64,000 nt of DNA from the NCBI GenBank assembly GCA_001783715.1, contig MFNF01000061.1:6722-70721 (forward strand), read 5' to 3'. The notes under the pieces are model-generated. The model was not told where the DNA came from. It did no database searches and saw only the letters and a list, made by a program, of their open reading frames with translations. This stretch comes from Candidatus Lambdaproteobacteria bacterium RIFOXYD2_FULL_56_26. GTDB taxonomy: Bacteria; SAR324; XYD2-FULL-50-16. Made by a program: the position numbers and the translations under genes. Shown here piece after piece: positions 40,893 through 49,388 of the stretch. The first letter of the stretch is position 1. Every line of letters starts with the position of its first letter.

Positions 40893-41401
40893 ATGGCACC
40901 GCTAAGGTTGACCCAGGCCTGCCGCTTGGCGGACCGGCACAAAAAAGAGGTGGCGCTGCTGTTTTTGGACCTTAACCGTTTTAAGCAGGTCAACGACAAC
41001 TTGGGCCACGAAAAAGGGGGGGGACCCACTGTTGCAAGAGGTCTCCTGGCGACTGCAAAGCTTAGTCCGTAGTTCGGATACCGTGGGCAGACGGGGGGGA
41101 TGAATTTACCTTGGTGCTCGAAGAGGTGGAAAACGAAAATGCCGTGGCCGCCATTGCCCAGGGCATCGTCACCAAGGTGTCGGAGGCAGTGCTGCTGGGG
41201 GATGAAGAGGTTTTTGTCGGGGCCAGCATCGGGATTGCCCTTTACCCCAAAGATGCCCAGGACCTCAAGAGCCTGACCAAGGCTGCCGACTCCGCCATGT
41301 ATTGGTCCAAGGAAGCGGGCCGGGGGGCCTTCCGTTTTTACGACCCCAAACTGGATCTACCGGAGGCGCAAGACCCCGACCCTGGTCCGGAGCCCGCCTG
41401 A
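40893..41401 (+). pseudogene. GGDEF (diguanylate cyclase) domain remnant, N-terminally truncated and frameshifted at two poly-G tracts
   Basis: Three frames together read LLFLDLNRFKQVNDNLGHEKG / DPLLQEVSWRLQSLVRSSDTVGR / GGDEFTLVLEEV...; frame breaks fall in the runs of 8 G (near 41021) and 7 G (near 41087); no sensor or N-terminal domain upstream. Confidence 0.7.
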
Positions 41402-44791: not shown

Positions 44792-45517
44792 TCAAGTAAA
44801 ATGCTGCCGCCGAAATCCCCAATAAGCCAGCCCCATCCCGGCGGTCATCAGGGAGGAAAAAAGCAGGGCATCCAGCTCAAACCAAACCCAACCCACCGCA
44901 CCCAACAACCCTCCGGTAAAAAACCCGGCCAACAGACTCAAGTGCAGCTCAATCCGGCTCCATTCAAACTCCCGGTTCTTCACCCCCCGGCCCAGTTCCA
45001 AGCCAATGTCGGTCAAGACCCCGGTCAGGTGAGTGGTGCGGATCACCACTTTGGAGTAGGCGGTAAACAGGCCGTTTTGGACCCCGCAAGCGAAGCTCAA
45101 GGGGTAGATCCCCGCCAAGGGATCCAGCAAAAAGACCCGGTGGGCCGCCAGGATCACCACCGATTCGCCGATCAGTACATACCCGTACCGCTTGTGGGGC
45201 TCGAAAAGCCCCCCGCCGACCGCCAGCCCGCTGGTAAAGGCACCCAACAGGAAAAAGGCCAAGGTCAACAGATAAAACTGGACCTCCTGCCCGCCCAAGA
45301 CTAACTGAAGGCTCAAGTGGCTGACCGTGCCGGTGACATGGCTGACCCCCATGTGCAGGGGCTGCATGATCGAAAGCAGGTTGATCATCCCGGCGTTGAA
45401 GCTCAGGGAAAAACCCAAAAGGTGGGGGACAAACTTTAAGATCGGGGGTTCCAATGACTTCTGACCCCTCCCAAGGGAATGGTTGACCGGAAGAAACCTG
45501 TCTTGCAACTCTTTCAA
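44792..45517 (-). CDS. integral membrane protein, possibly DUF1275/YoaK-like
   Basis: Six predicted TM helices with Gly-rich helix faces; family assignment tentative; start likely internal. Confidence 0.35.
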   Translation of the reverse strand: MKELQDRFLPVNHSLGRGQKSLEPPILKFVPHLLGFSLSFNAGMINLLSIMQPLHMGVSHVTGTVSHLSLQLVLGGQEVQFYLLTLAFFLLGAFTSGLAVGGGLFEPHKRYGYVLIGESVVILAAHRVFLLDPLAGIYPLSFACGVQNGLFTAYSKVVIRTTHLTGVLTDIGLELGRGVKNREFEWSRIELHLSLLAGFFTGGLLGAVGWVWFELDALLFSSLMTAGMGLAYWGFRRQHFT

Positions 45518-45751
45518 ATCTCCAGTCCAAAGTCAACCTGTGCCCGGCCCGGAGCCGCCCTCAAGGGTGGCCAAAAACCCGGTTTTGGGTCCTGGGACAC
45601 CCCTTGGGGGCCAGCGGCCCCGCCTCGGGCCTGCAAAGCCCCAAAACCATCGTCGGCCAAGGCCTACCGGAAGGCCAAAAAAGAAGGTTCCAGCCCAGAA
45701 AATTGGTTTATTTCTTGAATCACCGGTAAGGTTCGCTCTCCTTTTTTTTGG

Positions 45752-46804
45752 TTGCCGATGAAAAACAAACTGGGTCTGTGCTTGCTCTTTGCCTTGGGCT
45801 GGGTGGGTCAGAGCCTCGCCTTGGAACCAGGGCACCTGCGCTACAGCGTCCGGGCGCTGGGGATGGGCAACGCTTACCTGGGGGTAGGGACCGACTCGAC
45901 CGCCCTTTATTACAACCCCGCCGGGCTTGGTTTGGCCAAAGTTTGGAATTTCCAGGTTCTGAACCTGGAGGCCACCGGGAGCGACAAACTCTTGGAATTG
46001 GCGGGCGGAGACCTGAACAGCGCCTTGAGCAATCTGGCGGGCCACAAGGTTTACGGGGATGTGGTGGTCGAGGCCAGCGCCGGTGGACCGGGGTTTGCCG
46101 TTTCGACCTTCAACGGAGGGCTGCTGGACCTCAAGGTGGATAACCCGGTGGTGCCTTACGCCCAATTTTTGGCCTACACCCAAAGGGGTACGGTGCTGGG
46201 GTTTGCCGGGGGCACCGACTGGAACTGGGGCTTGAGTTTGGGCCAAGTGACCCGTGAGGGCACCAGCGGCTCGGCCCACATCATGAACCTGATGGACCAA
46301 GCTTACATTGATGGGGTGACCCAAAACCTGGAGACCAAAACCGCCACCTTGGCCAACTTCGGCCTTTTGCGGCCCCTCAAGCTGGGGATGTTTGACGAGG
46401 CCCATCTGGCGGCGGTTTGGCGGGGCGGGATGGACTTTGGCCTGGCAGGCCAGCTCAAGCCTCAGCTGGACCTCGGCTTTGCCGGCAAGGGGGTGTTGGT
46501 GGGGATGGACTGGATTCTGGCCGCCGACTGGGTGGACCTGAACCGGGCCAACAATCCCGAAGGCAGCTACTTGAGTCATTTGAACCTGGGCACCGAATTG
46601 GGGGCTTGGAGCCAGCCCAACGGCACCCCGGCTTTGGCTCTGCGAGCGGGGTTCAAGGGGCCGTATCCCTGTGTGGGTTGGACTTTGAATCCCCCTTATC
46701 TGCCCCTCACCTTGGTTTATGCCTCCTGGTCCGAAGAGATCGGCACCGAGGCCGGGGATGTCCAGGACTCCAGGAAAAGCCTGGACCTGTCGATCAACTT
46801 TTAG
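45752..46804 (+). CDS. hypothetical outer-membrane beta-barrel protein
   Basis: Signal peptide, alternating amphipathic strands, C-terminal F (…LSINF). Confidence 0.4.
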   Translation: MPMKNKLGLCLLFALGWVGQSLALEPGHLRYSVRALGMGNAYLGVGTDSTALYYNPAGLGLAKVWNFQVLNLEATGSDKLLELAGGDLNSALSNLAGHKVYGDVVVEASAGGPGFAVSTFNGGLLDLKVDNPVVPYAQFLAYTQRGTVLGFAGGTDWNWGLSLGQVTREGTSGSAHIMNLMDQAYIDGVTQNLETKTATLANFGLLRPLKLGMFDEAHLAAVWRGGMDFGLAGQLKPQLDLGFAGKGVLVGMDWILAADWVDLNRANNPEGSYLSHLNLGTELGAWSQPNGTPALALRAGFKGPYPCVGWTLNPPYLPLTLVYASWSEEIGTEAGDVQDSRKSLDLSINF

Positions 46805-46816
46805 CCGAAGGCACCT

Positions 46817-48156
46817 TTGGGTTTGCAGAAGGTCGGTTTCACCCTGGGTTTGGTCCTACTGCTCTTTGGTTGCAAAGGGCAGGTGCAGGACAGCTGTGCC
46901 AAACGGCTCAACCAAAGGGAGTTTGCTTCGGTCGCCGCCGACAGCAAATGCACCACCTGGGAACAAGCCTCCGGGGAATTGGGGCTGGCGGGTTTTGTGC
47001 TTTCCAATCTGGTCGCCGATGGGGCGACGGACAACCTACGCAGCGCCCTGGGCATCGGCCCCGAGGTCACCGAGTTTAAAACCTGGGCCGGTCGCACCCA
47101 CTACCAAAATGCCCAGCGGTTGACCGGCAGTACGGTCGGGGCGGCGTATGAAGGCCAAAGCCGGAGTTTGGCGGACATAGAGCTGCACTTTTTTGCCAAC
47201 CTGGGCAACATCCTGGCCCAAAGCTACATCCTCCTCGATTCCAGCGCCGACGGGGCCATCAGCAACGAAGAGATTTTGACCGCCACCAGCCTCAACTCCA
47301 GCAGCTCCAGCACCTTCGGCCAAAACGTGATGACCGATTCGGGGAAGTTGCAGTTCACCAACTCCACCGGTACCACCTACCTTTTGGACTTGGCTCACGG
47401 GTACTGTGAAACCGACCCCAACCTGGACGGGGTCTGGGGGGGCAGCACTGCCAGCATCGAGGGTTGCCTGATCACCGCCGCCGACTTGGCCCAAGCGAGC
47501 GGGGGCAGCTTGAGCCTTTCTGGGCCTTGTGCTATGGTGATCCAAATTGACTCGGTGCAAAGTCTTTTTACCAAACGGCTCAGCCAAGACGACCCGGTCC
47601 TGGACCTCAGCTCAGCCTTGGTGCAGGGCTTTGACAGGATGGACGAGGACCTGAGCGCCTTAGACATCAGCACCGATGCCCAGATCCGCCAAACCTTGGC
47701 CGATCTGACCCAAACCCTGGACAACGGGGCCACCTGCGGTTCAACCCAGGGGCCACCTGCGGTTCAACCCAACTGACCGAGGTCAACCAGATCCGCAACC
47801 TGATCGAGGCTTCAGCCCTGATCGCCCAGTCCACCTATGGCAGCTACAACAAGGTCGCCCTTTCGACCATGCAGTCCAGCTCCGACCAGACCATCACCGC
47901 CCCCAGTTTTACGGTCACCGTCAGCGGGGTCCAGGTGAGCCTGTCTTGCACCAATGCCAGCAACTTGGATGCCCGGATGATCTACAAAAATGCCGCCGGT
48001 ACCGGCTATGTCCCTTACCTGGAAGGGGCGACCACCAACATCATTGATGCCTTCGTGAACTTGATGATCCTGGAGCGGGATTCCTTGGGTGCCTTCAAGC
48101 CCACCGTCGCCGGGGACGGGATTGTGAGTTTCAAGGAATTGCTTTGTGTCCAGTAA
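46817..48156 (+). pseudogene. lipoprotein gene interrupted by a 23-bp tandem duplication (frameshift)
   Basis: ORF 46817-47776 (lipobox LLLFGC) ends just after the duplication; its continuation 47780-48156 is in the frame predicted by a +23-nt insertion; removing one copy restores one ~446-aa ORF. Confidence 0.7.
47725..47770 (+). repeat. perfect 23-bp tandem duplication (ggggccacctgcggttcaaccca x2)
   Basis: Copies at 47725-47747 and 47748-47770 are identical. Confidence 0.9.
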
Positions 48157-48169
48157 TCCTGCCCGTCCC

Positions 48170-48592
48170 TTAGCCCTCCGCCGCCTTTGTGAGCGCCGCC
48201 AGTTCCAGCTTGCCCATCTGCAACAAGGCCCGCATCACCCGGGTATTGCGCTCCGGGTCGGCAGGGTCCATCCAGGCTTCAAAGGCTTTGGGGACAATCT
48301 GCCAGGAAAGCCCATATTTGTCTTTGAGCCAGCCACAAGGCCCCGGCTCCCCTCCTTCACCAAGTTGGTCCCAGTAATAATCCATCTCCTTTTGGTCTTC
48401 ACAGTTGACCACCAAGGAGAGGGCCTCGTTGAACCGGAACAGAGGGCCGCCGTTGAGCGCCATCATCTCTTGGCCACAGAGCAAAAAGCGTAAGGTGAGA
48501 ACCGTTCCCGCCGGTCCGGGACCGGCCTCGGTGTACCGGGACACCGCCAGGACCTGGGAGTTTTCTTGGAAAACCGATAGATAAAAGTCCAC
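48170..48592 (-). CDS. VOC/glyoxalase-fold family protein (PhnB-like)
   Basis: 140 aa resembling the 3-demethylubiquinone-9 3-methyltransferase/PhnB-like VOC domain. Confidence 0.5.
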   Translation of the reverse strand: MDFYLSVFQENSQVLAVSRYTEAGPGPAGTVLTLRFLLCGQEMMALNGGPLFRFNEALSLVVNCEDQKEMDYYWDQLGEGGEPGPCGWLKDKYGLSWQIVPKAFEAWMDPADPERNTRVMRALLQMGKLELAALTKAAEG

Positions 48593-48691
48593 CGCCTCTT
48601 CCGCTTGGTGGTCAAACCAAAGGCAAGGGGTGATCTTGGGACTTTGGAAGTGGCCATGGCCGGCTCCTGGTGGAGGTTGGGGCTGCTTCTC

Positions 48692-49219
48692 TCAGGCCTG
48701 CTCGGCCAGGGTCTTGAGTCGGCTCAGACCAATCTCGAAGTCTCCGCCCACCATTTTGTCCATGTTGAGCAGAAGGCCCATCACCTTGTAAGTGTAGGTG
48801 GATTTCCCGGACAAGGCCCAGGTGACCAAAGTTCCGGCCTCTTGGGGTTTCAGGGTGAACTCCGCCAGATTGGTGGCCGCAAAAGGTTTAAAAAACTGTA
48901 GTTCAATCGAAAGTTGGGTGGGCGCTTGGGACTTAGTGAGGGTCATCCGGCCCGCCCCTACGTTTTTGTTTCCCGACCAACCGTAGGTGGCCCCCACTCC
49001 AGCGGTGGTCTCGCCATAGGTCCGCACCATTTGCGGGTCTTTGTCGTAGGGGGTCCATTGTTCCCATTGCCGGAAGTCGTTGAGTAAACCGAAAATCTGG
49101 TCTGCAGGGGCAGCCATCCAAACCCTTCGTTCCACCAAAAAAAAATTGGGCTTGGTGGCGGCGTAGGCTAGAGGGACGGCAATCAGAAGAGCGAGGGCAG
49201 GCAGGAGAAAGGGGACCAT
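48692..49219 (-). CDS. SRPBCC (START/polyketide-cyclase-like) family protein with signal peptide
   Basis: ~175 aa, N-terminal signal (MVPFLLPALALLIAVPLAYA), SRPBCC-like helix-grip pattern. Confidence 0.5.
   Translation of the reverse strand: MVPFLLPALALLIAVPLAYAATKPNFFLVERRVWMAAPADQIFGLLNDFRQWEQWTPYDKDPQMVRTYGETTAGVGATYGWSGNKNVGAGRMTLTKSQAPTQLSIELQFFKPFAATNLAEFTLKPQEAGTLVTWALSGKSTYTYKVMGLLLNMDKMVGGDFEIGLSRLKTLAEQA

Positions 49220-49312: not shown

Positions 49313-49388
<76 letters not shown>

Follow-up and report, generated by a model that had tools for sequence, protein, structure and literature searches.

The question raised by this locus is whether a lipoprotein gene interrupted by a short perfect repeat is a gene recently lost, a gene that can be switched on and off, two genes in their own right or an error of assembly. 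The window, that is, the whole stretch of 64,000 nucleotides analysed here, comes from a metagenome-assembled genome (MAG) of Candidatus Lambdaproteobacteria bacterium RIFOXYD2_FULL_56_26. A first-pass annotation, made from the letters alone, described in it a perfect 23-bp back-to-back duplication which shifts the frame of one lipoprotein gene, and left the choice between a recent inactivating event, a reversible switch and an assembly artefact. The evidence described below makes it very probable that a genuine and recent 23-bp duplication has produced a loss-of-function frameshift in a lipoprotein gene which is conserved and single-copy, in a population of Candidatus Lambdaproteobacteria from the Rifle aquifer. 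In kind, the lesion is an ordinary frameshifting duplication mutation.

The 23-nt unit, GGGGCCACCTGCGGTTCAACCCA, is present twice on the forward strand, and the two copies, at 47726-47748 and 47749-47771, adjoin each other and are 100% identical. TRF reports a period of 23, 2.0 copies, 100% matches and a score of 92, the top score in the 64-kb window, and an exhaustive scan of the window for other perfect tandem duplications with a period of 10-199 nt gave 0. These two analyses confirm the duplication as first described, except that its span had been given one base off, as 47725-47770; the correct span is 47726-47771. Extra copies of the unit with up to three mismatches were not present in the window, and 100 shuffles gave 0 matches. 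A chance origin of the duplication is not credible. In the original frame, copy 1 (+ strand) encodes G-A-T-C-G-S-T-Q, which lies in a conserved motif, DNGxTC...LTEVxQI, and copy 2 (+ strand), taken here as the extra copy, encodes the same GATCGSTQ in the -1 frame.

The consequences for the reading frame can be followed base by base. The truncated N-terminal fragment is a 319-aa ORF at 46817..47776 (+ strand), which begins with a signal peptide and the lipobox LLLFGC. In this ORF copy 1 is translated as GATCGSTQ; copy 2, being out of frame, gives GPPAVQPN, and the ORF ends at a premature TGA at 47774-47776, three bases past copy 2; the frameshift tail of the truncated product is ...GSTQGPPAVQPN. 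As 23 is not divisible by three, the frame shifts after residue 311. The stranded C-terminal coding region at 47772..48156 (+ strand) corresponds to residues 312-438 of the intact protein, including ...NIIDAFVNLMILER, lies in the -1 frame and aligns without gaps to full-length homologues. The downstream frame, open over 47635-48156, is -1 relative to the upstream ORF, matching an insertion of +23 nt, and in this frame copy 2 is read as GATCGSTQ followed by LTEVNQIRNL…. When one copy is deleted, a single ORF of 1317 nt including the stop codon is obtained, which encodes 438 aa and not the approximately 446 aa estimated at first. Furthermore, when the repaired protein was compared with the window by tblastn, exactly two collinear pieces were returned, one in frame 2 (residues 1-311) and one in frame 1 (residues 301-438), which overlap by the duplicated residues, and no paralogue of the gene was found in the 64-kb window. 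The first-pass proposal that the continuation to 48156 is in the frame predicted by +23 nt is thus borne out by the -1 frame and by tblastn, and the proposal that removal of a copy restores one lipoprotein gene is borne out by the frame arithmetic together with the orthologues described next.

The ancestral state is preserved in the relatives. The closest relative, P0011 on contig L003, is a protein of 438 aa with 90% aa identity, whose gene has one copy of the unit and whose neighbours match those in the window (ClpX, ClpP, trigger factor, DUF1275 and the 348-aa upstream gene). The DNA alignment of the window with L003 has a clean 23-nt gap with well-conserved flanks, and in the protein alignment three more distant homologues (P0002-P0004, 431-454 aa) cross the junction of the repaired protein without a gap. 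The junction sits in the conserved motif D302-N303-G304-x-T-C307…L-x-E314-x-x-Q317. Moreover, five species-representative genomes (L009-L013) have one intact ORF each, of 441-474 aa, covering the repaired protein from residues 1-10 to residues 437-438. An exhaustive profile search of 1.84 billion representative proteins gave 94 family members, about 40 of which (398-481 aa) match the profile unbroken from about position 10-20 to position 458 or beyond, and the two products of the window appear in the same search as fragments, at positions 10-332 and 366-462. At the duplication site the relatives have unique sequence, with neither a repeat nor length variation. The comparison with orthologues which the first-pass annotation had proposed therefore gives a single ORF and not two genes, in L003, in L009-L013 and in the approximately 40 representatives.

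The broken gene is predicted to encode a bacterial lipoprotein with a signal peptide and a lipobox: the N-terminus is ...LVLLLFGC19KG, and Cys19 is invariant across 17 aligned homologues; that the lipoprotein lies at the surface was presumed in the first-pass annotation. An AlphaFold2 model of the repaired protein, made with 17 homologues, has a pLDDT of 84.5 and a pTM of 0.76 and presents one compact alpha/beta protein. In the predicted fold the break falls in a loop, 302-309, between helices 289-301 and 310-322, and the truncation would remove helix 310-322, the strands at 338-384 and helices 399-412 and 431-435, that is, one of three long helices in a run and the majority of the beta strands in the C-terminal part. 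Two conserved cysteines would go with them, Cys370, which is nearly invariant, and Cys436, which is invariant. From the modelled fold we infer that the truncated protein would be non-functional or, at the least, severely impaired; some activity could persist in the lipidated N-terminal part of 311 residues. As for the family, it has 94 representatives at the 50% identity level and eight conserved cysteines besides that of the lipobox. Neither Pfam nor NCBIfam gave a significant match, a sequence profile search of the PDB likewise gave none, its sole hint being a weak EF-hand-like loop at D141-E152, and Foldseek of the model against the PDB found no match below E = 4.

Immediately upstream lies a partner gene of 348 aa (45758..46804, + strand), which is unaffected by the duplication and adjoins the lipoprotein gene in six of the six relatives examined. 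The partner protein has 348-390 aa in the window, L003 and L009-L013, with a weak PorV/PorQ-like match at its N-terminus, and its homologue is encoded upstream on the same strand in all five of L009-L013. In distant relatives the lipoprotein gene is clustered with two further lipoprotein genes; in L010 four consecutive genes are on the same strand and three of these have lipobox-like N-termini. The lipoprotein gene and its partner may form a conserved envelope module. A search for promoters and terminators in 45400-48700 gave nothing above the expectation from shuffles.

In public databases the two halves are recorded as two proteins. The 319-aa product is identical to NCBI OGG99067.1, OGH01452.1 and OGH07060.1, which come from the MAGs Candidatus Lambdaproteobacteria bacterium RIFOXYD1_FULL… and siblings, and a 95-aa ORF at 47869..48156 (+ strand) is annotated as a separate hypothetical protein (OGG99068.1 and counterparts). 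The 95-aa ORF matches the family profile at positions 366-462 only, and, judged from this match, it is the tail of the broken gene.

The lesion recurs across assemblies. The 319-aa product has been recorded for 17 contigs, of which ten are 50-200 kb long. Variants differing in the start-codon call or in one residue occur on further contigs, and the truncated product is found on more than 20 contigs. Seven other contigs of the population were read, and both copies are present in all seven, with 99.7-100% identity to the window: L001 (ERZ4902888, SPAdes-style NODE), L002 (ANAN16 S002, a scaffold), L004 (ANAN16 S001, a scaffold), L005 (a contig of JGI C687J50191), L006 (ERZ4902911, MEGAHIT-style k141), L007 (a contig of Logan SRR2090173) and L008 (a contig of Logan SRR3989314). 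These seven assemblies comprise IDBA-type scaffolds, SPAdes, MEGAHIT, Logan and JGI, the assembler being taken from the contig names. In every assembly examined for this population the two-copy allele forms the consensus; all comparisons within the population are of assembled consensus sequences, in which alleles below the consensus are invisible. A strain variant represented by L004 and L006 has four clustered SNPs at 46861-46882, three of them synonymous and one giving F17L, and it also carries the duplication. Four substitutions within 22 nt of the signal-peptide region are more suggestive of a short tract acquired by recombination than of mutations that arose independently. Beyond 46861-46882, L004 and L006 differ from the window at no more than four positions, all in L004 (41934-42157), plus an N run. 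Both contigs, apparently from different assemblers, stop at exactly 47839, and this shared end suggests a real assembly-graph branch at 47840 in that sample. A +1 G at 48083 in the JGI contig L005 was considered as a compensating change and rejected; it stands among N calls in a low-quality stretch and lies past the stop codon.

The age of the event can be estimated by comparison with L003. For codons 1-311 the dN/dS is 0.12 (dS 0.56), for the stranded codons 312-438 it is 0.076 (dS 0.37), and there are no further stops or indels in the gene relative to L003. Because the C-terminal part has no relaxed constraint and the copies are identical, the duplication is recent, having arisen well after the split from the L003 lineage. 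Either it is older than the strain variants sampled at Rifle or it has spread among them. The recent inactivating event among the first-pass alternatives is consequently the one that finds support, from the single-copy relatives, the dN/dS values and the multiple assemblies.

The mechanism proposed for this event is as follows. A 23-bp tandem duplication would have arisen by replication slippage or template switching, the default explanation, to which short duplication mutations are classically attributed. Translation would then leave the frame past residue 311, add eight wrong residues and stop, so that the last 127 residues would be lost, while the C-terminal part has no start codon of its own before 47869 and no signal peptide. 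The outcome would most likely be a young pseudogene, in the form of a null or severely crippled allele, loss of function being the expected result of the truncation. At the junction there is no microhomology (C precedes the unit, which ends in A; the unit starts with G and is followed by A), and neither a notable hairpin nor meaningful inverted repeats are found at the borders of the duplication. A CAAC…CAAC pair near the junction was tried as the origin and rejected, as it would give a duplication of 25 nt and not of 23 nt. With no microhomology and no notable hairpin to evidence a slipped-strand origin directly, we infer it only as the default. Among frameshift pseudogenes made by short tandem duplication, the present case shares the head-to-tail repeat, the length not divisible by three, the nearby premature stop, the intact single-copy relatives and the two recognisable halves, and differs in having no flanking microhomology and in the allele being common to all assemblies read. 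The marks of a young pseudogene are found together here: a perfect repeat whose length is not a multiple of three, one-copy orthologues, collinear fragments and a lesion present in multiple assemblies.

Several other explanations have to be weighed against a young pseudogene, beginning with those that deny a frameshift mutation, or its effect. That the genome truly has one copy and the second is an assembly or sequencing artefact might be supposed from the origin of the window, as the consensus of a MAG can hold errors, although nothing specific points to one here. Against this stand the recovery of the same 46-nt structure from different read sets and assemblers, contigs of 50-200 kb which run through it, and the length of the repeat, whose 46 nt fall short of both the read length and the final k-mers given in contig names (k141). 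Because the two-copy sequence recurs in seven further, independently assembled contigs, the artefact, one of the first-pass options, is effectively ruled out and retains hardly any probability. The view that the locus holds two independent genes, one for a 319-aa lipoprotein and one for a protein of 95 aa as in GenBank, is in accordance with the public records, which list two hypothetical proteins, but it is refuted because the relatives carry one copy and one ORF. Both parts are one ORF in all relatives, the 95-aa ORF has no signal peptide and, by eye, no ribosome-binding sequence before its ATG, and the break interrupts an invariant motif and a confidently predicted compact fold; the probability left to two separate genes is negligible. 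A further explanation is recoding, in which a programmed -1 frameshift or transcriptional slippage would yield a full-length protein carrying about 8 additional aa. The shift needed is indeed -1 and the two frames overlap by 142 nt (47635-47776), an arrangement of overlapping, -1 related frames which is also that of programmed -1 ribosomal frameshifting in dnaX and IS transposases. Those systems differ from this locus, which has no slippery heptamer, no stimulatory structure and no conserved frame change. No in-phase X XXY YYZ heptamer occurs in 47635-47776, where CCCAAAC and AAACCCT are both out of phase, homopolymer runs of five or more are absent from the 142-nt overlap, the DNA fold of 47700-47800 is not better than that of shuffles (z = -0.76), and no frameshift is found in the relatives. 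In addition, the downstream frame has no ATG, GTG or TTG before 47869, no Shine-Dalgarno-like motif was seen by eye ahead of the ATG at 47869, and a product starting there would be without a signal peptide. With no slippery site, no significant fold, no early start and no Shine-Dalgarno motif, recoding or independent expression of the C-terminal part is unlikely, and recoding to a full-length product in particular is highly improbable.

Two more explanations accept the duplication and concern its origin or its fate. The 23-nt repeat might be the target-site duplication left as a footprint by an excised mobile element, which would change the origin only and have the same consequence. The junction without microhomology, atypical for simple slippage, could be cited for it, but there is no element remnant between the copies and the unit is not found elsewhere in the window; besides, bacterial insertion-sequence target-site duplications are typically 2-14 bp, which 23 nt exceeds, and such a footprint is a very remote prospect. 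The reversible switch proposed among the first-pass options, in which a 23-nt copy is gained and lost at appreciable frequency, by slippage between the two copies, to give phase-variable expression of the lipoprotein, has more to be said for it and is nevertheless unlikely. Two perfect adjoining copies permit the precise loss of one, which would restore the exact ancestral ORF, and the stranded C-terminal part is still fully intact. The strain-variant contigs L004 and L006 both end 68 nt past the duplication, which could reflect ambiguity in the assembly graph, but this distance needs a k of about 92 for a bubble between one-copy and two-copy alleles and fits the usual k of neither assembler. 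Every population contig read has two copies, and no one-copy allele of the population was found at the consensus level, which leaves the switch without support. The one-copy protein, in six plausible gene-call versions (start codons, with or without F17L), is absent from a collection of 15 billion proteins, and in a 23-mer scan of JGI metagenome contigs the sole contig with the 23-mer has two copies. The word-indexed protein search is lossy, a 175-aa junction query having missed even known homologues, and its negatives are weak. Simple sequence repeat (SSR) contingency loci of surface genes in Haemophilus, Neisseria and Campylobacter consist of many units of 1-7 nt, such as tetranucleotides or homopolymers, and their tracts persist as repeats from strain to strain, with lengths that differ among isolates. 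They are alike in that altering the number of repeats changes the reading frame of a cell-envelope protein gene; here, in contrast, a 23-nt unique sequence is present in two copies instead of a multi-unit hypermutable repeat, and the relatives have neither a repeat nor length variation at the site. Of the two hallmarks of phase variation, then, coexisting ON and OFF alleles are represented by the two-copy allele only, at the consensus level, and a conserved, length-variable hypermutable tract is lacking in the relatives.

The nearest documented case of phase variation by duplication is cap3A of S. pneumoniae, a capsule gene which, as summarised in PMC11163986, is toggled by gain and loss of a tandem duplication (Waite et al. 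2001). According to that summary, a duplication inside the ORF switches the gene off and its precise loss would restore it, as would be the case here, whereas both states were seen there, with high-frequency interconversion in culture, and only the OFF state is seen here, in consensus assemblies. By this analogy the duplication could be one state of a cap3A-like switch for an envelope lipoprotein of an uncultivated groundwater lineage, with the Rifle population held OFF by, for example, phage or predator pressure, a proposal which must be regarded as quite improbable. If reads revealed both alleles, this would be duplication-based phase variation outside pathogens; nothing points that way.

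For a young pseudogene, a loss-of-function allele at consensus in a natural aquifer population suggests that the protein is dispensable, or its loss favoured, under those conditions. The practical value lies chiefly in the correction of annotation: the halves are annotated as two genes in three or more public MAG records (OGG99067.1 with OGG99068.1, and counterparts), and a pseudogene flag is warranted.

Elsewhere in the window, a remnant of a GGDEF diguanylate cyclase gene lies at 40893-41401 (+ strand) and is broken by two +1 frame changes, in a G8 run (about 41008-41015) and in a G7 run (about 41091-41097). When stitched together, it matches positions 18-159 of the 161 of Pfam GGDEF (E = 5.8e-38); it has neither the start of the domain nor a sensor domain, and gene calls in four other assemblies show the same split, into 59 aa and 91 or 96 aa. 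It represents a second broken gene within 7 kb or, possibly, a case of poly-G length variation. On the other side of the lipoprotein gene, a tRNA-Gly gene (anticodon GCC) at 49313-49388 (- strand) is the only tRNA gene in the window.
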